A DNA stretch of 64,000 nt from Candidatus Omnitrophota bacterium (GTDB taxonomy: Bacteria > Omnitrophota > Gorgyraeia > JAFGHF01), in NCBI GenBank assembly GCA_043805735.1, contig JAZDHS010000022.1, positions 38,950 through 102,949 of the forward strand, read 5' to 3'. Below, in pieces: positions 1 through 58,236 of this stretch. The notes under the pieces are model-generated. The model saw only the letters and a program-made list of their open reading frames with translations. It did not search any database and had not been told where the DNA came from. How positions within the stretch are numbered: the first letter of the stretch is position 1; each line of letters starts with the position of its first letter. A program made the translations under genes and the position numbers.

Positions 1-626
1 CGCGCAGCTGTTCGAGCTTTTCCGCCTGTTCCAATTCCCCAATGGGTAAATTTTTAAACGTAAAGAGGAAATCTTTCGTATAGGCATAAAGCCCGATGTG
101 CTTATAAAAATTAAACTCCGGCGCGCAAGCATCGGCATCCCTAACATAGGGAATGGTTGAGCGCGAAAAATAAAGCGCAAAGTTACGTTTGTCTTTAACC
201 ACTTTTACGACGCTGGGATTGTTTAATTCGCTGTTATCGCTGATTTTACGGATTACCGTGGCCATCGGGATAGTTTCGTCATCACTAAGGCAACGCACCA
301 ATTCGTCAATCATCGAGAAATGGATTAGCGGCTCATCAGCCTGGATATTCAAAACAATAGCGGCATCGATCGGATTGGCTACCTCGGCAATCCGATCGGT
401 TCCGGAAGTGTGTTCTTTGGCCGTAATCACGACCTTGCCGCCGAAAGACTCTACTGCCCGCACCACCCGTTCATCATCGGTAGCTACAATGAGCTCATCG
501 AGCAGCCTGCTCTTTAAGGCCTCTTCGTAGACATATTGAATCAACGGTTTTCCCAATAGCTCTGCCAAAACCTTCCCCGGAAAACGGCTGGCCTCGTAAC
601 GCGCGGGGATAACACCAATGGCTTTC
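1..626 (-). CDS. kdsB: 3-deoxy-manno-octulosonate cytidylyltransferase (CMP-Kdo synthetase), C-terminally truncated by the window edge. Start GTG lies in the right end of repeat copy A.
   Basis: Own reverse-strand translation begins VKAIGVIPARYEASRFPGKVLAELLGKPLIQYVYEEA...FYKHIGLYAY, typical of KdsB. Not in the ORF track because it is partial. Confidence 0.85.
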
Positions 627-717
627 ACCCCGCCCTTCCTTTCCCGGCATTGCCAATATAAATACTGCTTCTGCTTAATTTCATCTGTATTGCTTTCTCA
701 GGAAGGGCGGGGTTCAT
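624..717 (-). mobile_element. Intergenic TIR repeat (MITE-like), copy A, short variant (~91 bp). In gene orientation it reads TGAA-CCCCGCCCTTCC...GGAAGGGCGGGG-TGAA; it sits between the hldA stop and the kdsB start.
   Basis: Direct sequence comparison with three other copies; shared 12-13 bp inverted termini, shared internal ATGCAGATGAAATTAAGC...TTTATATTGGCAATGCC core, TGAA flanks. Coordinates +/-3. Confidence 0.8.
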
Positions 718-1700
718 TGTATCGCCCTCTCCAACAGTTCTTCTTGCGTAGCCACAGCCACTCCCACTTTTCCGACCACAATTCCGGCCGCATAATTAGC
801 AATATACGCCGCCTCGACCATCGAGGCGCCGCTGGCCAAGGCCAGCGTTGCGGTGGCAATTACGGTATCGCCTGCCCCGGAAACATCAAATACTTCCTGA
901 GCCACCGTCGGGATATGTACCGAATGGCCGCTCTTTTCAAACAGGCGCATCCCGTTTTCACCCAAGGTCACCAATACCGCCTCGGCATTCTGGCTGGCTA
1001 AAAGCGCCCGTCCGGCCACCTCCAGCTCCTGGTCATTTTTAATCTCTTCGCCGATGGCCTTGGCCAGCTCTTGGTGATTCGGGGTAATCAAGGTCACATT
1101 TTGATAATAGGCAAAATGGTTCTCTTTCGGGTCCACGCTGATAATTTTTTTATGCTTATGCGCCAAAAAAACAATCTCCTGAATCAGCCGGGGAACGACC
1201 GCCCCCTTGCCGTAATCTTCCACTACTATCGCATCAATTTCGTTGATCTTTTCGCGCAAAAAGGTGAGCATTTGTCCGATAATATTATCGTCCACCTCTT
1301 CGACTTTTTCGCGGTCAATGCGCACTACCTGCTGGTGATGGGCAATCACACGGGTCTTTAAAGTCGTCGGGCGCTGGGAATCAATAATAATGCCCTCGAC
1401 ATCGATATTTTTCCGCCTTAGTTCTTCGGTTAAAACCCGCCCGCGCTCATCAGCGCCAATTACACCGCAGAGATATACGGTCCCGCCCAAGGCGTGAATA
1501 TTATTGGCCACATTCGAAGCGCCGCCGGGCATAAAAGATTCGGAATTGACCCAAACTACCGGTACCGGCGCCTCAGGAGAAATCCGGTTGACTTTACCCC
1601 AGATAAACTCATCAAGGATCAGATCCCCGATTACGAGAATCTTCACATTTTTAAAGTTTTTGATTATTTTCTTTGCTGATTCCTGGTCATACCCTTTCAT
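714..1700 (-). CDS. hldA: D-glycero-beta-D-manno-heptose-7-phosphate kinase (RfaE domain I-type, pfkB family); kinase domain only.
   Basis: 328 aa, ILVIGDLILDEFIWGKVNRISPEAPVPVV RfaE-I signature, pfkB C-terminal DVSGAGD motif. Confidence 0.85.
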   Translation of the reverse strand: MKGYDQESAKKIIKNFKNVKILVIGDLILDEFIWGKVNRISPEAPVPVVWVNSESFMPGGASNVANNIHALGGTVYLCGVIGADERGRVLTEELRRKNIDVEGIIIDSQRPTTLKTRVIAHHQQVVRIDREKVEEVDDNIIGQMLTFLREKINEIDAIVVEDYGKGAVVPRLIQEIVFLAHKHKKIISVDPKENHFAYYQNVTLITPNHQELAKAIGEEIKNDQELEVAGRALLASQNAEAVLVTLGENGMRLFEKSGHSVHIPTVAQEVFDVSGAGDTVIATATLALASGASMVEAAYIANYAAGIVVGKVGVAVATQEELLERAIQ

Positions 1701-21717: not shown

Positions 21718-22191
21718 TTATCGGCTCATGGCGATGCGGCCGGTGCGCACGATTTCTTTAATTTCGAAGTTCTTCAGCAACTCCAAAAACGTATGAATCT
21801 TATTTTGATCGCCGACCACTTCCAGAGTTAGGGCATTAGTCGCGGCCTCATCGATCTTGGCCTCTAAAGTCTGGGCAATTTCCAGAAGCTGTGGACGGAT
21901 CTTTGGCGTCACCACCACTTTGACTAATACCAACTCTCGGTCAATAAAATTTTCGCCAGTCAAATCCTGGACCCTGATCGTATCGACTAATTTGTTCAGC
22001 TGTTTCTTAATCTGCTCGAGGATCTTTTCATCCGGGGCATTGACCACAATAGTCATCTGGGAAACTGTGGGATCATTAGTCGGGCTAACCGATAAAGAAT
22101 CAATATTAAAGCCGCGCGCGGCAAACAAACCGGCCACCCGCGCCAAAACCCCAAATTTATTTTCCACTAAGACCGAGAATATATGTTTCAC
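21718..22191 (-). CDS. ilvN: Acetolactate synthase small (regulatory) subunit. GTG start created at the repeat copy B junction.
   Basis: 157 aa, ACT domain LVENKFGVLARVAGLF. Confidence 0.85.
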   Translation of the reverse strand: MKHIFSVLVENKFGVLARVAGLFAARGFNIDSLSVSPTNDPTVSQMTIVVNAPDEKILEQIKKQLNKLVDTIRVQDLTGENFIDRELVLVKVVVTPKIRPQLLEIAQTLEAKIDEAATNALTLEVVGDQNKIHTFLELLKNFEIKEIVRTGRIAMSR

Positions 22192-22318
22192 CCCGCTCTT
22201 CCTTTCCAGGCATTGCCAATATAAATATTGCCTTTGCTTAATTTCATCTGCATTGCCTAAACCTTTCTGGCTATGCTTATGTTTGTTACGATCGCTTGTT
22301 TAGGAAGGGCGGGGTTCA
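22187..22318 (-). mobile_element. Intergenic TIR repeat, copy B (~131 bp), between the ilvB stop (TGA then TGAACCCC) and the ilvN GTG start
   Basis: Same termini and core as copies A, C and D. Confidence 0.8.
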
Positions 22319-23992
22319 TCAGGCCAGCCCTCCTCCGATCATCCGGTTAATCGCTTCGCCGGCCGGTACCATCGGAAAGACGTTTTCTTCTTTTTCGACC
22401 ACGAAATCGAGAATCACCGGCTTATCCTTGATCGCCAGGGCCTTTTTGAGCGCGGCGCGCACATCCTTTTTCTTATCGATGCGCAATCCCAGCGCGCCAT
22501 AAGCTTCGGCCAGCTTCACGAAGTCCGGGTTAACGAGATTGGTATAGGAATATCTTTTCTTATAGAACAGTTCCTGCCATTGGCGAACCATACCGAGATA
22601 GCTATTGTTCAGGATAGCAATCTTAATCGGCAATTTATTATTCACCGCGGTGGCCAGTTCCTGAATATTCATCTGAATACTGCCGTCTCCGGCAATATCA
22701 AAGACGATCGCCTTGGGTTTTCCCAGTTGTGCGCCGATCGCCGCGGGAAAACCGTATCCCATCGTACCTAGGCCACCGCTGGAAATAAAACTGCGCGGTT
22801 CGATATATTGATAATACTGCGCCGCCCACATCTGATTTTGGCCTACTTCGGTCGTAATAATCGCTTTCCCTTTGGTAAGCTCAGAAATTTGTTCGACGAC
22901 ATACTGCGGACGCAACTTATTGTCGTCTTTATACTTTAAGGGATGCTTTTGTTTCCATTGTTTGACTTTCTCATCCCAGGCCGCAATCTGCGGTTTTTGG
23001 ACGATTTTATTCAACTGGGTCAAAATATTTTTAGCGTCGCCGACTATCGGAATATCCACTTCCACGTTTTTGCTGATTGCCGAAGGGTCGATATCAATAT
23101 GAATAATCTTAGCGTGCGGGGCAAAGGCATCAAGCCGGCCGGTAACACGGTCATCAAAGCGGGCACCCACGGCAATAATTAAATCCGCCTCCATAATCGC
23201 GTGGTTGGCGTAAGCGGTGCCGTGCATGCCAAGCATCCCTAAAGAAAGCTTATGCGTTCCGGGAAAACAACCCAGTCCTAAAAGCGTAGTGGTGACCGGA
23301 ATTGCCGTTTTTTCCGCTAGCTTTCTCAATTCCTCGGAGGCCTCGGAAAGAATCACCCCGCCGCCGGCATAGATAATCGGCCTTTTGCTTTCGGAAATTA
23401 TCTTTGCCGCACGTTTAATCTGTCCGGGATGGCCGGTAATTGTCGGCTTATATCCGCGTAAATCCGGATCCTTCGGATAATGGAATTCACATTCGGCACT
23501 GGCGACATCAGACGGTAAATCAATTAGCACCGGGCCCGGCCGTCCGGTCCGCGCGATAAAAAAGGCGTTTTTGATCGTCTGGGCCAACTCGCGCACATCC
23601 TTGACCAAGTAATTGTGTTTGGTGATCGAACGGGTAACCCCGGTCACATCGGCCTCTTGAAAGGCATCATTTCCGATCAGGTGCGTTTTCACCTGGCCGG
23701 TAATTGCCACTACGGGAATGGAATCCATATAGGCCGTAGCCAAACCGGTGACTAAATTGGTCGCCCCTGGCCCGGAAGTAGCCAGACAGACGCCGACCTT
23801 ACCGGTAGCCCGGGCATAGCCGTCGGCCGCGTGCGCCGCGCCCTGTTCATGCCGGGTCAAAATCAATTTAATCTCGGCATCATAAAGTACATCAAAAATA
23901 GCCAGCACCTGCCCTCCGGGATAGCCAAAAATTATCTTCACCCCTTCGTGCTGCAGGCTTTCGATGAGAATCTTTGCGCCGCTGAGTTTCAC
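22319..23992 (-). CDS. ilvB: Acetolactate synthase large subunit. GTG start inside the right end of repeat copy C.
   Basis: 557 aa, TPP enzyme motifs. Confidence 0.9.
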
Positions 23993-24119
23993 CCCGCCCT
24001 TCCTTTCACGGTATTACCAATATAAACATTACTTTTGCTTAATTTTATCTGCATTGCTTAAACCTTTTTATTCCCGCCTTTGCTTATATGCGTTGCTTGT
24101 TTAGGAAGGGCGGGGTTCA
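23988..24119 (-). mobile_element. Intergenic TIR repeat, copy C (~129 bp). Its first TGA is the ilvD stop; its terminal GGGG+TG forms the ilvB GTG start.
   Basis: Same termini and core. Confidence 0.8.
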
Positions 24120-25769
24120 TTTCAGAATTGCTCCTTCATTGGCCTGCGAGACTAACCGGGCATAACGATATAAGTACCCTTCGCTCACTTTCGGCTGCGG
24201 GGCTTTCCAGCTCGCCAAGCGCTCATTAATCTCCCTCTGGCTTAACTTCACTTCTAATTTGCGATTCGGCAGATCAATAGTAATGATATCGCCGTCCTTA
24301 ATGATCGCTAAAGGACCACCCACGGCCGCTTCCGGGGCAATGTGTCCGATACAAGGCCCGCGCGTACCGCCGGAGAATCTACCGTCGGTAATCAGGGCCA
24401 CGCTTTCGGCCAGGCCCATTCCCACTACGGCCGCCGTTGGTGAAAGCATTTCGCGCATCCCCGGGCCGCCTTTGGGCCCTTCATAGCGGATGACAATCAC
24501 TTCGCCGCGGCGGATTTTACCCTCTAAGATTACCCGCATCGCTTCTTCTTCGGTATTAAAACAGCGAGCGACGCCGCTAAAATGCTGCATTTTCTTGCCC
24601 ACGGCCGACTGTTTTACCACTGCCCCATCAGGAGCAAGATTGCCTTTTAAAATAGCAATACCGCCTTCGCTATGATAAGGATTGCTCAAACGTCGGATCA
24701 CCTCTTCGTTATACACCGGGGCGCTGGCGGCAATTTGCTGCACAGTTTTACCGCTAACGGTAGGCAGATTATGCAATTTATCTTTTAGCCGTTTAAAAAT
24801 GGCCGGTATTCCGCCGGCGGCATCAAAGTCTTCCATAAAATATTCGCCCCCAGGGAGTAAATCGACGATATGCGGCACCTGCCGGCTGATTTTATCAAAG
24901 GTCTCTAAGGTTAAACTCAGGCCAAATTCCCGGGCGATGGCCATAAGGTGCAGCACCGAGTTGGAGGAACCGCCCAGAGCCATATCGACTATAATCGCAT
25001 TTTCCAGGGTCTGTTTTTTCACTATGGTCCGCGGCAAGACGTTACGGCGCACTAACTGCACAATTTGTTCGCCGCTTAAAGAGGCAATTCTATCCTTACG
25101 GGCCGAAACGGCCAAAGCGCTGGCGCACCCCGGCAGAGAAAGCCCGATCGCTTCAGTTAGACAGCTCATCGTATTGGCGGTATAAAGCCCCTGGCAAGAA
25201 CCGGCTCCGGGGCAGGCCTCAATTTCCAAATTATTCAACTCATCCTGGGAGATTTCCCCTTTTTTAAATCTGGCCAGGGCCTCAAAGCTATCCTTCACTA
25301 AAGACAAGCGCCGCTGTTTATATCTTCCTGAAATCATCGGACCGGCCGTAACCACGATCGCGGGGATATTGAGCCGGCCGATAGCCATCAGCATGCCGGG
25401 TGTAATTTTATCACAGTTAGTCAGGCAGACCAACCCGTCAAAACAGTGCGCGCGGACCATCGTTTCCACGCAGTCGGCGATTAATTCCCGGGAGGCCAGC
25501 GAATATTTCATCCCCTGATGGCCCATAGCAATACCGTCGCAGATTCCGGGCACGCCGAAGAAAAACGGCACTCCGCCTCCTGAGCAAACCCCCCGTTCAA
25601 TAAAGCGCTCCAGGCGGCGCATCCCAATGTGCCCAGGTATAATATCGCTAAAGCTGCTAGCCACACCGATAAAAGGCTTGCGCATTTCGGCACGGGTAAT
25701 CCCGGTAGCATAGAGTAAAGCCCGATTACCGGTGCGTTCCAGACCTTTCTTGATTCGATCGCTTCTCAT
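24117..25769 (-). CDS. ilvD: Dihydroxy-acid dehydratase. Its TGA stop is the first three bases of repeat copy C.
   Basis: 550 aa, CDKITPG Fe-S cluster motif. Confidence 0.9.
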
Positions 25770-28243: not shown

Positions 28244-29190
28244 AAGTGGGTGAATCCTTTAGGCGTTAGACCCCTCCTTAAAAGGAATGAGGAGGGTCTA
28301 CCCTTTAGGGTTAACGTTATCTGACGCGCCTTTTTGTCAATTAAGGTCAGGCCTTCTTTTCGGGTGACAATCTTACCGACGCAGGTACAAAAATCCGGTA
28401 AGGCTCTTTTGGCATAGAGTGCGCGCACCCGCTCCAGCGGTAAGGTAAAGAGCAGTTCAAAGTCTTCTCCGTCGTAGAGTGCCCCTCTTGCAGTAGCCCC
28501 AGGTGCAAGCGGAAGAAGCTCTTCAAAAAGCACTGCCCCGACCCGGCTTTGCTCGCTGATGCGCCTCAGATCCGAGGCCAGTCCGTCAGAAAGGTCAATC
28601 ATTGACGATGGCTTGTACTGTTTAACCAGGTAACGCGCCTCTTTAAGGCGGGGAATAAAATTATATTGTTTCAAGCGCCGGGTATTACCCAGAGTTCCGC
28701 TGACAAAAATCAGGTCATTGACCTTGGCTCCGGAGCGTAAAACTAGTTCGTTCTTCTTAACCTTACCCAAAAGAGCAATATTAATCACGATAACCGGTGA
28801 GCGCACGGTATCGCCGCCGACAATATTGACACCAAATTCCTTGGCCAAGGTCGATATTCCCCGGATCATCTCATCAGCGGCCGACAGGGGAAGCGCCGCC
28901 GGTAAACCACAAGAAACTACGGCATAGGTAGGGATACCACCCATGGCCGCGATATCGCTGATATTTACCGCCAGGCTCTTTCTGCCGATTTGATAAAAAC
29001 TAGCCTCCCGGCGGGTAAAATGCACTCCCTCGACCAGCATATCGGTGGTAAAGAGCAAATAAGAGTCCCCGGAATCAGAAATGACCGCCGCGTCATCGCC
29101 AATGCCGCGGATAACTGTTTTATCCGTAGTTAGCTGTTTGGCAATACGTTCAATCAGGCCAAATTCACCGATCTGTTTCAAAGTCTTCAT
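28240..29190 (-). CDS. thiL: Thiamine-monophosphate kinase. The C-terminal ~12 codons are encoded by a palindromic repeat.
   Basis: 316 aa, GDDAAV...TTDMLVEGVHF AIR-synthase-like motifs. Confidence 0.8.
   Translation of the reverse strand: MKTLKQIGEFGLIERIAKQLTTDKTVIRGIGDDAAVISDSGDSYLLFTTDMLVEGVHFTRREASFYQIGRKSLAVNISDIAAMGGIPTYAVVSCGLPAALPLSAADEMIRGISTLAKEFGVNIVGGDTVRSPVIVINIALLGKVKKNELVLRSGAKVNDLIFVSGTLGNTRRLKQYNFIPRLKEARYLVKQYKPSSMIDLSDGLASDLRRISEQSRVGAVLFEELLPLAPGATARGALYDGEDFELLFTLPLERVRALYAKRALPDFCTCVGKIVTRKEGLTLIDKKARQITLTLKGRPSSFLLRRGLTPKGFTHF
28261..28315. repeat. Palindromic REP-like repeat (GTTAGACCCCTCC...GGAGGGTCTACCCTTTAGGGTTAAC) embedded in the 3' end of thiL; encodes ...FLLRRGLTPKGFTHF*
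   Basis: Core TACCCTTTAGGGTTA recurs at 47153-47210 (twice) and 53410-53440. Confidence 0.6.
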
Positions 29191-40763: not shown

Positions 40764-41649
<886 letters not shown>

Positions 41650-41652
<3 letters not shown>

Positions 41653-42720
41653 CCTTCGCTCCTTGAGCTGTTTTTTAAGATAGTCTATTCTTTCCACTGG
41701 CAGCGGATCTTCTTCATTCAACAGGGCTAAATAGTAACTGACAAAATCGCCTTTATAAATAAGCGAAAACATCCGGGCCAAAAGCCCATCGCCGCGCGAC
41801 CAGATTTCCTTAAGCGTAATCGATTCTTTCTGCAGAAGTTCGCGAGTAATGTCGATGCGTTTTTTCACCTGTGGGTGTTCGCCGGGATCGCGTAAAAAAA
41901 CCACCACAAAGCGTTCGAGTGCCGAGCGCGGATGGCGCCAGCCGACAATCTCATTATGCGTCATTTCCGGAAAAACATGCGTCGAAGAAAGCATTTTACT
42001 GTTTTCGGCCAGCTGCTGCCTCCAGCGCGTGGCCACCGCAGAAAAATGTTCATCCGCCGCGTAAATCACACAATAGTGGTCTTTGAGCCGATGAGCCAGG
42101 GTCTTGGCGGGATTCCTTTCGCTGGGTACGGCCACGCCGAAGGCTTCTTTTTCCAGCTTTTTTAAAAGCTTCACCGTCTCCCGCACTTCCTGTTCCTTAT
42201 TTTTTATCAGGCCGATGTTAGCAAAAATGGCCAGCAGCGGAAGCGATAGAAAAGCTAAGGCCGAACGCGGCGGATACCCTTGCGGCAAGAGCACACAGAG
42301 ATCGCCATTTTTTTTTGCCGCTTCAGCCAGTTCGCCCCCGCAAGTCAGGGCAATAATCTTCGCCTTTTTGCTGCGTGCCTGCTGGTAGGCGCCCAGCACC
42401 TCTTCGGTATTTCCCGAATAGCTCATTAGAATCGCCAGCGTCTCTTTACCGACATATCCCGGCAGCGTATAATCGCGGTTAACCGCGAGCGGAATACGCA
42501 GATCTTTGCGCAAATACCCGCTCATTATTTCCGCGCCGATCGCCGAACCGCCCATGCCGCAGCACACGCTATTGCGCACCTTGGCCAAAGCACGGCCCGG
42601 TGAAACATGTTTACCTAAAGCAAAGGCCTGGGTGCACTGTTGCGAAAAGGCGCCGATAATCTCGCGCATCTTCAAGCGGTCAATCCGCTCAATATATCGG
42701 GGATCATCCAGAGAACGCAC
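41650..42720 (-). CDS. Bifunctional phosphoglucose/phosphomannose isomerase (SIS domain). Its TGA stop is supplied by repeat copy D.
   Basis: 356 aa, SIS domain motifs (SYSGNTEE). Confidence 0.7.
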
Positions 42721-46515: not shown

Positions 46516-46591
46516 TGGAGCGGGCGATGGGGTTCGAACCCACGACAACAACGTTGGCAACGTTGTGCTCTACCAACTGAGCTACGCCCGC
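46516..46591 (-). tRNA. tRNA-Gly (anticodon GCC), CCA encoded
   Basis: Manual fold: acceptor GCGGGCG/CGCCCGC, D-arm GCTC-AGTTGGTA-GAGC, anticodon loop TTGCCAA, T-loop TTCGAAC. Confidence 0.85.
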
Positions 46592-46615
46592 TGGTTTAGT
46601 TTATGCTTTAGAATA

Positions 46616-46700
46616 TGGTGCGGACGAAGGGAGTTGAACCCCCACGGGTTTCCCCACAAGATCCTAAGTCTTGCGCGTCTGCCAATTCCGCCACGTCCGC
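46616..46700 (-). tRNA. tRNA-Leu (anticodon TAG), long variable arm, CCA encoded
   Basis: Manual fold: acceptor GCGGACG/CGTCCGC, anticodon stem CAAGA/TCTTG with loop CTTAGGA, 85 nt. Confidence 0.75.
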
Positions 46701-46717
46701 CCGCCTTCTTCTTACCG

Positions 46718-46793
46718 TGGTACCCCCACAAGGATTCGAACCTTGGACCTTGTCCTTAAGAGGGACCTGCTCTGCCAACTGAGCTATGGGGGC
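46718..46793 (-). tRNA. tRNA-Lys (anticodon CTT), CCA encoded
   Basis: Manual fold: acceptor GCCCCCA, D-arm GCTC-AGTTGGCA-GAGC, anticodon loop CTCTTAA, T-arm CAAGG-TTCGAAT-CCTTG. Confidence 0.8.
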
Positions 46794-46824
46794 TCCTGCT
46801 ATATGCTAATAAGGTGGATAATTA

Positions 46825-46853
46825 TAACATAAAGAGAAAAGCTGGTCAATTAA
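46825..46853 (-). promoter_or_regulatory. Sigma70-type promoter (TTGACC-17-TATAAT) ~25 nt upstream of tRNA-Lys; probable promoter of the Lys-Leu-Gly tRNA operon
   Basis: TTGACCAGCTTTTCTCTTTATGTTATAAT on the minus strand. Confidence 0.6.
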
Positions 46854-46929
46854 AATGGTGTTCAGCGAATCCTAACCGGCCAAAAATTTCCTCACCACAA
46901 GACGGTTCGGAAATTTCTTGGCCAGGATT

Positions 46930-46980
46930 CGATGTAAAATTAAAAAGCACCACTACATATGATAAAAGAGCTTTTTAATT
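46930..46980 (-). terminator. Hairpin TTAAAAAGC-N21-GCTTTTTAA followed by a T-rich tract, immediately 3' of tRNA-Arg
   Basis: 9-bp inverted repeat. Confidence 0.45.
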
Positions 46981-46983
46981 TTA

Positions 46984-47060
46984 TGGCGCGCTCGGCAGGA
47001 CTCGAACCTGCGACCAACTGGTTCGAAGCCAGCTACTCTATCCAACTGAGCTACGAGCGC
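46984..47060 (-). tRNA. tRNA-Arg (anticodon TCG), CCA encoded
   Basis: Manual fold: acceptor GCGCTCG/CGAGCGC, anticodon stem-loop GCTGG-CTTCGAA-CCAGT, T-arm GCAGG-TTCGAGT-CCTGC. Confidence 0.8.
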
Positions 47061-47152
47061 ACCCAATAGCGTCATTTATAAAGTGTTATTATAGCTTAAG
47101 TTCCCCCGCTTGTCCACCTTCTTAGACCTTTCATTATTATGGAATGATGAAA

Positions 47153-47210
47153 GTCTACCCTTTAGGGTTAGACCCCTGCTTAAAGCTAGGGTTTACCCTT
47201 TAGGGTTATC
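47153..47210. repeat. Two tandem copies of the GTCTACCCTTTAGGGTTAGAC-type palindrome, spanning the stop codon of the M48 peptidase gene (encodes ...ITLKGKP*)
   Basis: Direct sequence match to the 28290 and 53415 copies. An adjacent hairpin CTTTCAT-N12-ATGAAAG lies at ~47127-47152. Confidence 0.6.
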
Positions 47211-53412: not shown

Positions 53413-53440
53413 CGGTCTCCTCCTAACCCTAAAGGGTAGG
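53410..53440. repeat. Copy of the TACCCTTTAGGGTTA palindrome immediately upstream of the GH57 gene RBS (AGGAGG), next to an imperfect 9-10 bp hairpin (~53429-53468)
   Basis: Reverse-complement match to the core repeat. Confidence 0.55.
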
Positions 53441-53523
53441 CCTTCGTAATTCCATATTAACGAAGGGCCTAAATAAGTATTATTACCTTTAACTTAGCAT
53501 TATCGCAAATTAATCGGATACTG

Positions 53524-55582: not shown

Positions 55583-57403
55583 TTATCCCTTCACCTTTTC
55601 CAGGGCGTCAATAATTTCCTCCAAAAGCGCTAAGGTGCCGCGCATTTCCTCCTTAGTAATACTCGCCGGGGCATAGCGGGCCATATCGCAGCGGTTAAAA
55701 CAATCCTTAAGCTTGGCTAAGAGTTCCGCGGCAATAGCCCGGGCTTGTAGTTGGGTAATTACGTCAGCGGTAATACCGCCTCTGGGCAAATGGAACTTAT
55801 CGCCCAGATATTCCTGCAGTGTTTTAAACACGGCGTCAAAAAAACGCTGTGGCTGGTTGGCACCAAGCAAATGCCGTAGCTGGCGGATATTTTTTCGCGC
55901 CTTTCCGGGAGCACGCAGCCGTCGCGCATAACGCACATCGGTCTCTAAACGCTCTCTTCTCTTTTGTAACACGGCCACTAAAATAACGGCCAATAACGGT
56001 ACTACTAACAGCATTAGAAAAATCCGGTTCTTATATAAGGCCTGGCCCCTTCGTTGAATTACCCCCGGGGAATCCTTAATGAAAATTATATCTTTGCCCA
56101 GCACTTCTTTATGCTGCAGCGATTCTTTGCCTTCTTCGCTGCGTTCAAAAATAGCCAGCTGGTCTGACTTCGCCAGGGGCGTGACCGTAATCGGTATTGG
56201 GCCGCGGGTCAGCTCTTCAAAGGCCTGCGTTTCGGGGTTAAAGGAACTGAATTTTACTGCCGGCACGAATTTAACACTCTCGTTGGTGGGGATAATTACC
56301 TGCTCAAATACTTTCGCGCTGTTTTCCTGGACTACCTGCGGATCGTATATTTTGAAATCGTTGCCGAAGTCCAGCGCCGGCGGTTTAACGGTTTTAAAAT
56401 TACCGCTGCCGAAGATGCTGATTTTTAACGTAATCGGATCGCCCACTTTTACTTCTCTGGGGTTAGCCTGGAGGTCAAATTTATAATTTCCGATCGCGCC
56501 ATTAAAAGACGAAGGCGCATTTTCTTCCGGTAGGGGCAATATCGCCATCGGCACATCCAGGGCCTTTAATTCCAAAGGATATAAATCATACTGATTAAAA
56601 AAGTTTCCTCCGAAAAAGTCGTCGTCAAACCAGGAAGGAGCTGCCGAGTGTTGGCGCACCAAGGCGTTACATTTTATCACCGCCGGCCCCAAACGTAAAT
56701 CGCCGCCCCAGAGCCCAAACGCCTCGGTTGTAAATTCGACCACGGTATAAGCAATGCCGTTCATTGCTTCTTGATATTGCCGCGGCACAGAATATTCGCC
56801 TACGGAAAAACCCTCATGGGCAAATTCCGGATACTGGATATCGCGGATGGCCATTCGGCTGACATATAGCTTCACTTTAATCGGAATAGCCTCATTAACA
56901 TAGGCCTGGCGCTTGCCTACTTCCATAACCACCAAGGCCCTGTTCTCCAATCCCTCGGGTTGGACCGGCGGAGCCTTTTCTTGCTGTCTGGGAGGCTGGT
57001 TATACTGGCCAGGCGACCCGGAAACCACCTCGATGGTAATTGGCGGAGATGTGTAAGTCTGGCCACGGTATTGTACGCTCAGCGCCGGAATCTCATAAGT
57101 GCCGGCTTGGTGGGTCAGCAAACGGTAGCGGTGGGTAATGGACACCGTGGTCACGCCGTTAATAATCGACATCATCCGCGCCGGGCCAAGGTATTGCCAA
57201 TCCATGCCCTCTACTCCCGGAAAATAAGGAGTAGCTATATCCTGAGTACCGTAAAAAGCGAAGTCGAGCTGGATATCCTCTCCCACAGAAACACGGGTGC
57301 GGTCTACTTTGACCTCAAAGGTAACCTCCTCGGCAAAACTAGACCCGCAGAGGCTCAAGAATACACAGAAAATAATCGCCCGCCTAAACTGTTTCATCAC
57401 CAA
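55583..57403 (-). CDS. batD: Aerotolerance protein BatD (large secreted/membrane-anchored protein)
   Basis: 606 aa, signal peptide, C-terminal TM; operon context. Confidence 0.6.
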   Translation of the reverse strand: MVMKQFRRAIIFCVFLSLCGSSFAEEVTFEVKVDRTRVSVGEDIQLDFAFYGTQDIATPYFPGVEGMDWQYLGPARMMSIINGVTTVSITHRYRLLTHQAGTYEIPALSVQYRGQTYTSPPITIEVVSGSPGQYNQPPRQQEKAPPVQPEGLENRALVVMEVGKRQAYVNEAIPIKVKLYVSRMAIRDIQYPEFAHEGFSVGEYSVPRQYQEAMNGIAYTVVEFTTEAFGLWGGDLRLGPAVIKCNALVRQHSAAPSWFDDDFFGGNFFNQYDLYPLELKALDVPMAILPLPEENAPSSFNGAIGNYKFDLQANPREVKVGDPITLKISIFGSGNFKTVKPPALDFGNDFKIYDPQVVQENSAKVFEQVIIPTNESVKFVPAVKFSSFNPETQAFEELTRGPIPITVTPLAKSDQLAIFERSEEGKESLQHKEVLGKDIIFIKDSPGVIQRRGQALYKNRIFLMLLVVPLLAVILVAVLQKRRERLETDVRYARRLRAPGKARKNIRQLRHLLGANQPQRFFDAVFKTLQEYLGDKFHLPRGGITADVITQLQARAIAAELLAKLKDCFNRCDMARYAPASITKEEMRGTLALLEEIIDALEKVKG

Positions 57404-58236
57404 TCCTTTAATGTCTCCGGCAAAGCGTGCACCGGTATTTTTTCCTTATAAAGCCCTTTGGGCTCTTCTTCACGGCTATAGTCTTCCAAAAGCCCCAACG
57501 CCTCTTTCTCGCTTAATTCATTGTTTGCCGACTGGCTTTGCTCAGCAGAACTTTTTTGTTCTTGCTGCTGGTTTTGCTCTTGCTCTTGCCGTTGCTGCTC
57601 TTGCCGTTGCTGCTCTTGCTGTTGCTGCTCTTCCTGGGCCTGCTGTTGTTCGCTCTGCTGCTGTTGTTCATTTTGCTGCCCACTCAGCCCGTTTTGCTGC
57701 TGTTGTTGCTGTTGCTGCTGCTGTTGTTGCTGTTTTTGCTGCTGCTTTTGCTCTTCTTTTTTAAGTAGCCGCTCGAGCTCTTTTTTTACGAATTCGTAAT
57801 TATACTTAGCGTCTTCGTCTTGGCCATTGAGCTCAATTGCCCGTTCATAATGCCGTAACGATTGTTTCAACAACCCAATCGCCCGCTCGAGATCCGTTTG
57901 CTCAAACCCAATACCGTATTTGTATTTGGCATTGCCAATATTATAGCTGGCGTTTTGCTCTAAAACCGGGATATCAGAAAGGAGGGATTTTTCGTATTGG
58001 CCAATCGCCGGTTCGTAATCTTGCATTTTATAGCTGGTGTTACCCAGGTTAAAATTTACAATATCAGAATCGGGCTGGCGCTTTTGCGCCTGCTCATACT
58101 CTTTTTGCGCTTCCTGAAAATGCCCTTCTTCGTACAAGACATTACCCTTTTTCACCTGACTTTTTAGCGAAGGCGCCGCCCAGGCGCTAGGCGCACAAAG
58201 GACAATGAACACTGCGACGATTAGAAAATATCTCAT
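57397..58236 (-). CDS. batC: Aerotolerance protein BatC-like TPR protein with Gln/Glu-rich low-complexity C-terminal region
   Basis: 279 aa, signal peptide, TPR, poly-Q tract. Confidence 0.6.
   Translation of the reverse strand: MRYFLIVAVFIVLCAPSAWAAPSLKSQVKKGNVLYEEGHFQEAQKEYEQAQKRQPDSDIVNFNLGNTSYKMQDYEPAIGQYEKSLLSDIPVLEQNASYNIGNAKYKYGIGFEQTDLERAIGLLKQSLRHYERAIELNGQDEDAKYNYEFVKKELERLLKKEEQKQQQKQQQQQQQQQQQQQNGLSGQQNEQQQQSEQQQAQEEQQQQEQQRQEQQRQEQEQNQQQEQKSSAEQSQSANNELSEKEALGLLEDYSREEEPKGLYKEKIPVHALPETLKDW
57520..57780 (-). repeat. CAG/CAA trinucleotide-rich tract encoding the poly-Gln/Glu region of BatC
   Basis: (CTG/TTG)n on + strand with internal sub-repeats (TTGCTGCTCTTGCCG x3). Confidence 0.85.

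Follow-up and report, generated by a model that had tools for sequence, protein, structure and literature searches.

Four copies of a short repeat are found in a 64,000-nucleotide stretch of a Candidatus Omnitrophota genome (contig JAZDHS010000022.1, positions 38,950 to 102,949; below, the window, meaning the whole stretch analysed). They belong to a family of MITEs (miniature inverted-repeat transposable elements), as seen in their small size, the lack of a transposase gene, their terminal inverted repeats (TIRs), target-site duplications (TSDs) that vary from site to site, empty sites in relatives and dispersed recent copies. The element lies almost exclusively on start codons. Taken as a whole, the family is probably a non-autonomous one spread across Candidatus Omnitrophota that serves as a start-codon restart cassette, its oriented occupancy most likely being imposed at integration.

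In gene orientation every window copy reads TGAA-CCCCGCCCTTCC...GGAAG(G/A)GCGGGG-TGAA, and in the + strand form TTCA-CCCCGC(C/T)CTTCC...GGAAGGGCGGGG-TTCA. The four copies, c1 to c4 in order of position (Table 1), had been picked out in a first-pass annotation made from the letters alone; direct reading together with a mismatch-tolerant TIR search puts them where that annotation did, with TGAA on both sides of each. The TIRs are perfect over 12 bp in all four (CCCCGCCCTTCC/GGAAGGGCGGGG, one position being polymorphic), and the eight good TIR matches in the window (at most one mismatch) are all accounted for by the ends of c1–c4. Identity among the full-length window copies is 74–80% without gaps and reaches 75–92% over the shared right half (alignment and repeat finder). 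Every gene in the window is on the - strand, and c1–c4 are oriented as the genes are. As annotated at first pass, the TGA at the left end is the stop codon of the upstream gene for c1 (pfkB-type kinase), c3 (IlvD) and c4 (PGI/PMI), and for c2 it comes right after the ilvB stop. At the right end the last G of the element and the TG of the duplication form a GTG that opens kdsB, ilvN, ilvB and a nucleotidyltransferase gene (c1, c2, c3 and c4, respectively), and Pfam domains start at residues 1–5 of all four products initiated there. The 12-bp arms form a closing stem with z-scores of -2.5 to -5.4 against shuffled sequences; given these scores and the same layout in approximately 180 copies elsewhere, the architecture in the window is not due to chance.

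Those further copies come from two scans. The genome scan used one genome per species and a pattern consisting of the two TIRs only, agnostic to flanks and orientation. It returned 66 loci, ∼60 of them from metagenome-assembled genomes (MAGs) of Omnitrophota and 6 of them unrelated high-GC chance matches. The loci hold 77 distinct copies, of which 73 are independent once the first members of tandems are left out. The metagenome scan (120 loci, L074–L193), whose pattern was biased by ATGAA, added at least 103 copies, 95 of which enter the count of leader open reading frames (ORFs) given below; they repeat the genome pattern of start-codon occupancy. The search for copies elsewhere that the first-pass annotation proposed has thus yielded ∼180, in Omnitrophota genomes and metagenomes; CP070837.1, a complete genome, has at least 34 of them, and JAUWBJ01 at least 27. 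Some copies (L004, L017, L022, L044 and L049) are on MAG contigs labelled Elusimicrobia, 'uncultured Clostridia' or 'uncultured Planctomycetia', reflecting either mis-binning or mislabelling, or else spread beyond Omnitrophota.

When the TSDs are tabulated, TGAA is on both sides of 69 of the 77 genome copies. Six copies have variant flanks that match left and right (TGAG/TGAG three times; CTGA/CTGA, TTGA/TTGA and TAAA/TAAA once each). Paired change of both flanks is the signature of a staggered cut and identifies a true TSD, so that the proposal of a non-autonomous TIR element with a 4-bp TGAA duplication holds. Elements range in length from 46 to 128 nucleotides (nt), within the bound of ∼300 bp for MITEs, and their sole ORF is a leader of 13–43 codons. 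Their interiors fall into 25 clusters at 70% identity; the only parts common to all are the TIRs and a Shine-Dalgarno sequence.

The first-pass annotation had described the target as translationally coupled stop/start junctions. This proved too narrow. An upstream ORF ends in the duplicated TGA in 27 of 73 copies and just before it in 7 more, so that only ∼47% abut an upstream stop, and copies lying away from such junctions, which the annotation had itself named as counter-evidence, do occur. What is nearly constant is the start codon: for 71 of 73 copies, an ORF of 80 codons or more begins with the element-derived GTG. The base preceding the left TSD is A in 63 of the 77 copies, G in 13 and T in 1. 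This is the spectrum of start codons, and the target is therefore a start codon, RTG-AA, with TGAA made up of the last two bases of the start codon and the first two of an AAN second codon. The upstream flank contains an ordinary Shine-Dalgarno sequence at the correct distance. The real rule is thus a start codon of the form (A/G)TG followed by AA, and stop/start junctions are the subset in which this codon overlaps a TGA stop. Orientation relative to the gene is uniform, in 77 of 77 copies. The earlier description of a MITE stands, then, although its target was drawn too narrowly and it missed the strict orientation, the leader ORF and the built-in Shine-Dalgarno sequence.

Exceptions that the host tolerates are rare: one internal in-frame case among ∼80 genome copies and eight N-terminal fusions among the 95 metagenome copies. 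The internal case (L009 7667–7734, in CP070837.1) is a 68-nt copy with a TAAA duplication that adds 72 nt after codon 7 of a 450-residue ORF; it is read in the leader frame without a stop (NPALPDTTPCIIDVDEGNRRKGGV), which makes it similar to the in-frame insertions of Rickettsia palindromic elements (RPE). At L180 (519–600) the site of insertion is not the groES start but an ATGAA lying 23 nt before it, and the leader of this copy runs in frame into groES as an N-terminal extension.

Relatives of the window genome provide empty sites. A search with IlvB found Candidatus Omnitrophota relatives at ∼83% identity. Two loci (L002 and L003) have element-free ilvD/ilvB (AAATGAAAATT) and ilvB/ilvN (GGCGTGAAGCAT) junctions with 4-nt gene overlaps. 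In CP070837.1 (L001) the ilvD/ilvB junction is empty and the ilvB/ilvN junction is filled, by a 124-nt element of a different subfamily (GGCA-TGAA[...]TGAA-GCAT). The PGI/nucleotidyltransferase junction where c4 lies is element-free in L194–L197, which include CP070837.1 and another relative; in L194 and L196 the empty site is an ATGA overlap, GGAAATGAAGGC. Empty counterparts, as ATGA or GTGA gene overlaps, are thereby verified for three of the four window sites, where they bear out the predicted conversion of the start from ATG to GTG.

The same gene starts have also been filled in different genomes by different subfamilies: the ilvN start in the window and in CP070837.1, the kdsB start in the window, CP070837.1 and JAUWBJ01, and the ilvB start in the window and JADHYN01. 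A copy at one of these starts does not have its closest relative at the orthologous start of another genome. At some orthologous filled sites the element interior is 0.95–1.0 identical, as against 0.52–0.55 at 4-fold degenerate sites. Such conservation beyond synonymous saturation fits an element that has become the initiation region of its gene.

Amplification within genomes is evident. For 64 of 65 copies the nearest neighbour comes from the same genome, identity between two copies of one genome reaches 98.8%, and unrelated genes of a genome can carry near-identical copies; same-genome nearest relatives and near-identical pairs together indicate bursts that were specific to a lineage and in part recent. 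The target genes have no function in common, and outside the window the copies follow gene orientation on both strands. Head-to-tail dimers with one shared TGAA recur (L024 2743–2955, L040 5331–5547, L067 877–1095 and others). In these a new copy has inserted at the GTGAA re-created by an older one, and in some a single leader ORF reads across both copies (dimer-linked proteins P0136, P0143 and P0146).

Several variant structures were seen among these copies. The commonest metagenome form is 46–55 nt long (e.g. L080, L124, L143) and usually has, a few bases past the left TIR, a close internal match to the core of the right TIR, GGGCTGGGG; longer forms (e.g. L056, L066) have an internal segment similar to GGAAGGGCTGGGG. 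These internal segments could be relics of tandem copies or subterminal binding sites. The idea that GGGCTGGGG acts in the short forms as a decoy freeing the Shine-Dalgarno sequence was rejected, at least at equilibrium, as the left arm is predicted to pair with the terminal right arm at ∼0.9 probability. At L025 (3934–4186, in CP070837.1) a normal copy is on the start of a dehydratase/epimerase-like gene (MKKILVTGGAGF...), and 12 codons downstream another pair resembling TIRs follows, CCCCGCCCCTC/GAGGGGCGGGG; it is flanked by TTTA left and right, and its inner end encodes ATG and MRKKQILVTGGAG in frame with the remainder of the gene (FIGSNF...). This second pair could be a reverse-oriented variant element, a duplication of the 5' part of the gene or a terminator hairpin.

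Several features of the element may bear on how a gene survives its arrival. In 70 of 77 copies the right end, AGAAAGGAAG(G/A)GCGGGG-TG, places an extended Shine-Dalgarno sequence 6 nt ahead of the GTG; the consensus is matched at 7–9 of 10 positions, and at 8 or 9 in 55 copies. The start codon itself is rebuilt as GTG from the terminal G and the duplicated TG, and this G is all that the element contributes to it. Meanwhile the displaced old start, whose Shine-Dalgarno sequence or overlap with the upstream TGA is preserved, opens a leader ORF (MNPALP(K/N)...). No stop interrupts the leader along the element in 34 of 77 copies from genomes and in 39 of 95 from metagenomes, and such element-spanning leaders occur in at least nine subfamilies. 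Full-length leaders end in ...KGRAG and a stop at the duplicated TGA, which overlaps the new GTG (GTGA). The predominant element lengths are congruent to 1 modulo 3, and stop-codon density is 4.2% in the leader frame, compared with 10.2% and 12.8% in the other sense frames. Gene callers annotate the leader as a gene of 37–43 amino acids with a 4-nt overlap on each side. In the window, the c1 leader is complete, with 30 codons ending at GTGA, and those of c2–c4 stop after 13–20 codons. At the RNA level, TIR–TIR pairing is predicted at 0.9–0.97 probability in all 172 copies folded, and the modelled stem of ∼12–14 bp would enclose the new Shine-Dalgarno sequence and GTG. Promoter-like sites in the elements are not above chance, and a scan of them for terminators gave nothing. 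Rfam covariance models found only four tRNAs in the window at the gathering score, and in the element region only a chance miRNA match (E = 0.96).

These parts suggest the following mechanism. A ribosome initiating at the old ATG, or one terminating the upstream gene at the left TGA, would unwind the 5' arm, which corresponds to leader codons 2–6. Melting of this arm would free the 3' arm with its Shine-Dalgarno sequence and GTG, where a ribosome could re-initiate; in copies with a full-length leader the same ribosome would terminate at GTGA and could re-initiate there. The host gene would stay expressed, so that insertion would be nearly transparent to translation and translational coupling would be kept. 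The element would be, in effect, a mobile two-cistron translation-initiation cassette. A transposase or target selector acting in trans would prefer TGAA in the context of a Shine-Dalgarno sequence and a start codon. Selection would then lock copies in, because an inserted copy has become the ribosome-binding site of its gene and could be removed only by exact excision. Translational bypass of the kind found in T4 gene 60 was considered and is needless, as stop, start and Shine-Dalgarno sequence are all present.

Whether the element is directed to starts or merely survives there can be judged from the supply of sites. In 507 kb of genome loci there are 4504 TGAA/TTCA sites, of which ∼546 are intergenic and ∼150 (∼3%) are at gene starts. 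The start-linked sites hold >90% of copies, with 12–21% expected if intergenic insertions were neutral (binomial P < 1e-40 against that null). TGAA is the TSD in 92% of insertions, while of the unoccupied starts with A as first base of the second codon only 45% read TGAA (P = 4e-18), which points to a preference for TGAA at the DNA level. We therefore consider oriented targeting at integration to be likelier than a pure filter by selection. In its strongest form, for which we see about an even chance, a transposase or selector would actively read 'Shine-Dalgarno + RTGAA', or some property of the start region, and install the element in a fixed direction, so that a two-cistron restart cassette takes the place of the ribosome-binding site and start of the gene.

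The filter alternative, which is unlikely on balance though the likeliest of the rivals, would have the element insert everywhere at TGAA, or at any 4 bp; copies in genes would be purged, intergenic ones would be deleted in streamlined genomes, and oriented copies at starts would survive by being harmless and then indispensable. The design of the element does make start-codon insertion uniquely tolerable, the rare off-start copies (L009, the N-terminal fusions and L180 near groES) are tolerable too, upstream regions of occupied and unoccupied starts are alike, and the conservation of orthologous copies is in line with lock-in. Yet intergenic TGAA sites outnumber start-linked ones by ∼4:1, or by ∼7:1 when both orientations are counted, and <5% of copies are intergenic. 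The youngest pairs, at least 95% identical (95–99%), already have all members directly on a gene start, the one exception being the L050 copy, after which comes a tandem partner. Orientation is unbroken even though an element flipped in silico would still supply GGAAGG, GTG and an open leader frame; its Shine-Dalgarno duplex is -10.9 kcal/mol, compared with -11.7 for the native one, and it gives 26 open leader ORFs, compared with 34. Tandem insertions, moreover, recur at the GTGAA that an earlier copy has re-created.

The remaining rivals concern what the element is. It might have been exapted, the host keeping copies as a shared translational control (a thermometer, a binding site for a protein or small RNA, or a leader peptide) that subjects many housekeeping genes to a single signal, in the manner of the Neisseria REP2 repeats. 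We think this rather doubtful. The predicted stem would sequester Shine-Dalgarno sequence and start in 172 of 172 folded copies, interiors are conserved at some orthologous sites as described, and REP2 and the Borrelia IR repeats offer precedents (PMC3184786); but the diversity of interiors and lengths, with nothing but TIRs and Shine-Dalgarno sequence in common, means that there is no conserved ligand- or protein-binding module, Rfam has no match and the target genes share no function. Very unlikely is a single-strand element of HUH/Y1 type (IS200/IS605-PATE or REP/REPIN-RAYT), inserted 3' of TGAA so that the right TGAA would be its own. The strict orientation with respect to a tetranucleotide that is asymmetric, the strong hairpin of the single strand, and the position of all window copies on one strand with uniform GC skew would suit it, but the six variant-flank copies carry the same variant on both sides as a staggered cut predicts, the ends are true TIRs and not separate subterminal hairpins, and in other genomes copies are on both strands according to gene orientation. 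Finally, an ancient, vertically inherited intercistronic RNA structure that is not mobile DNA would be compatible with the filling of the ilvN, ilvB and kdsB starts in several genomes. It is effectively refuted by clean empty sites in equally close relatives and by the TSDs, and it is also at odds with near-identical copies at unrelated genes within one genome and with orthologous-site copies that are not each other's closest relatives.

Several results weigh against the oriented restart cassette that we favour. The argument for targeting rests on statistics and on an assumed tolerance of intergenic insertions. Occupied and unoccupied RTGAA starts show no difference in upstream sequence, and no determinant beyond TGAA has been isolated; targeting by end mimicry, in which occupied starts would resemble the right end of the element, was likewise rejected, occupied starts being no different from others. 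More than half of copies, including c2–c4, have stops within the leader, so that copies can persist without termination and re-initiation at GTGA. Stops are scarce in the antisense frames as well, and leader openness is therefore partly compositional. No covariation of the RNA type is seen at the polymorphic TIR position, where a C/A mismatch occurs in 18 copies compared with a U-G wobble in 14. Nor did any parent transposase with these TIRs turn up in the window, the 66 genome loci, the 120 metagenome loci or viral contigs; for the window this is as the first-pass annotation had reported. Unpaired or long-range TIR pairs are absent from the window and the 66 genome loci, no fetched locus has a multi-copy long ORF, and the viral scan gave 0 matches. 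Long metagenome ORFs starting ATGAACCCCGCCCTTCC were considered as transposase candidates and rejected as chance matches in high-GC organisms. A profile search for transposases whose N- and C-termini would be the leader read from a host ATG gave only peptides of 34–76 amino acids, which leaves the idea unsupported, the search being blind to a protein that shares only ∼7 residues.

Table 1. Positions of the four element copies, their parts and the adjoining genes in the window
Feature	Position	Strand	Remarks
Copy c1 (short form, 85 nt)	628-712	-	TIRs 628-639 and 701-712; between pfkB-type kinase and kdsB
c1 right-hand TGAA (gene orientation)	624-627	-	G628 and TG form the new kdsB GTG, 626-628
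c1 right-hand TGA	625-627	-	Terminates the c1 leader ORF
c1 left-hand TGAA	713-716	-	TGA 714-716 is the pfkB-type kinase stop; A717 and TG form the old ATG
c1 leader ORF	625-717	-	MNPALPEKAIQMKLSRSSIYIGNAGKGRAG, then stop; begins at the old ATG, spans the element and ends at the TGA that the new GTG overlaps
Copy c2 (124 nt)	22191-22314	-	ilvB/ilvN junction; TSD copies 22187-22190 and 22315-22318
c2 new ilvN GTG	22189-22191	-
c2 Shine-Dalgarno	22198-22207	-	GGAAAGGAAG
c2 leader	22257-22319	-	Old ATG shares A with the ilvB stop (TGATG); stop within the element
Copy c3 (124 nt)	23992-24115	-	ilvD/ilvB junction; TSD copies 23988-23991 and 24116-24119
c3 new ilvB GTG	23990-23992	-
c3 Shine-Dalgarno	23998-24007	-	GAAAGGAAGG
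c3 leader	24058-24120	-	Old ATG overlaps the ilvD stop (ATGA)
Copy c4 (124 nt)	41525-41648	-	PGI/PMI–nucleotidyltransferase junction; TSD copies 41521-41524 and 41649-41652
c4 new GTG	41523-41525	-
c4 Shine-Dalgarno	41532-41541	-	GGAAAGGAAG
c4 leader ORF	41612-41653	-	(V/M)NPALPKYAVHIK, then stop; old GTG overlaps the PGI stop (GTGA)
kdsB, CMP-KDO synthetase	2-628	-	Truncated by the window end; start codon struck by c1
pfkB-family sugar kinase (hldA-like)	714-1700	-	Stop codon within the left TSD copy of c1
ilvN, acetolactate synthase small subunit	21718-22191	-	Start codon struck by c2
ilvB, acetolactate synthase large subunit	22319-23992	-	Start struck by c3; stop adjoins c2
ilvD	24117-25769	-	TGA stop within the left TSD copy of c3
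Nucleotidyltransferase	40764-41525	-	Start codon struck by c4
Bifunctional PGI/PMI (SIS domains)	41650-42720	-	TGA stop within the left TSD copy of c4

The window contains other repeats. A second family of ∼50 nt has four copies, three on the + strand (28267–28313, 47122–47171 and 47179–47208) and one inverted (53423–53472), each with a stem AGACCCCTCC...GGAGGGTCT followed by an invariant palindrome, TACCCTTTAGGGTTA. Two of these copies are adjacent and lie beside a cluster of four tRNA genes (46519–47060, - strand). Degenerate CTG/TTG-rich repeats of 15–21 nt (CAG/CAA on the gene strand) occupy 57574–57763, inside an ORF at 57397–58236 (- strand), and probably encode a Gln-rich low-complexity protein segment.

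If the proposed reading is right, this would be the first mobile element to target the start codon as a generic genetic feature, and a selfish element that, being the initiation region of housekeeping genes, could be lost only by exact excision. Bacterial MITEs are usually viewed as intergenic passengers; this family would show a transposon colonising the start codon by means of a device that restores translation. The target selection to which it points, precise to a single codon and fixed in orientation, is of interest for genome engineering. Spurious 'genes' of 37–43 amino acids and unexpected GTG starts in annotations of Omnitrophota MAGs are explained by it, and for a phylum that is largely uncultivated and poorly understood it offers markers that are polymorphic and possibly a layer of translational control.

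The first-pass annotation had recognised no described bacterial MITE family in these copies, and we concur, finding no Rfam match and no published match in the literature searched. Apart from general reviews, that literature contained nothing relevant, neither a MITE or insertion sequence (IS) targeting start codons nor repeats in Omnitrophota. Classical bacterial MITEs such as Correia/NEMIS, ERIC/IRU, RUP and MITEAba12 are present in many copies and are co-transcribed, their RNA folding as a long stem (PMC2229807). The Omnitrophota family is like Correia, ERIC, RUP and MITEAba12 in its size (∼50–130 bp), TIRs, TSD, lack of transposase and high copy number, and probably also in co-transcription with neighbouring genes and in RNA that forms a long stem. 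Those elements, however, have TA or longer AT-rich TSDs and are intergenic, in either orientation and with no relation to start codons, whereas the TSD here is TGAA and the element is on the start codon, in one orientation, and rebuilds Shine-Dalgarno sequence and start. Like RPE and the ORF-carrying MITEs (YPAL and the 107-bp Correia form), it has 12-bp TIRs and an ORF that reads through, and is thus tolerated when translated. RPEs are in-frame peptide insertions inside coding regions, whereas here the leader is usually a separate cistron ending at a stop that overlaps the new start.

The Neisseria REP2 and Borrelia IR repeats lie upstream of co-regulated genes and provide them with a ribosome-binding site and a start codon (PMC3184786). 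They have neither TIRs nor TSDs, bring along a promoter and the whole ATG, and how they spread is not known. In the Omnitrophota family, by contrast, transposition is shown by TIRs, TSDs and empty sites, the elements gave no promoter signal, and their contribution to the start codon is its first base only. It does not match the IS200/IS605-derived PATE, which have subterminal hairpins, no TIR, no TSD and a fixed right-end tetranucleotide. It also differs from REP/REPIN sequences (imperfect palindromes of 20–40 nt with a 5' tetranucleotide of GTAG type, extragenic, mostly 3' of genes and without TSD) in having TSDs and in lying at the 5' start codon.

Cut-and-paste elements of piggyBac/IS1380 type make a 4-bp duplication specific for TTAA and have CCC...GGG termini, and piggyBac inserts in either orientation with no link to gene starts. 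Compared by description only, the Omnitrophota element resembles them in its specific 4-bp TSD, here TGAA, and in its CCC...GGG termini. Safe-haven elements, which are orientation-specific, include Tn7 at attTn7, IS1397 and ISKpn1 in REP sequences, and group IIC introns after terminators. They have one locus or one repeated non-coding sequence as target, so that damage to the host is avoided; the Omnitrophota family, in contrast, appears to recognise a generic feature of hundreds of genes, and repairs it. A synthetic analogy is found in the bicistronic design (BCD) translation-initiation elements reportedly described by Mutalik et al. in 2013. In a BCD a short leader cistron is preceded by a Shine-Dalgarno sequence of its own and contains another one, and its stop overlaps the start of the gene, such that translation of the leader unwinds the second start. 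If the two are functionally equivalent, as their shared layout suggests, the Omnitrophota element would be the natural and transposable counterpart of this engineered and immobile device, a mobile version of the bicistronic leaders that synthetic biology uses for context-independent expression.

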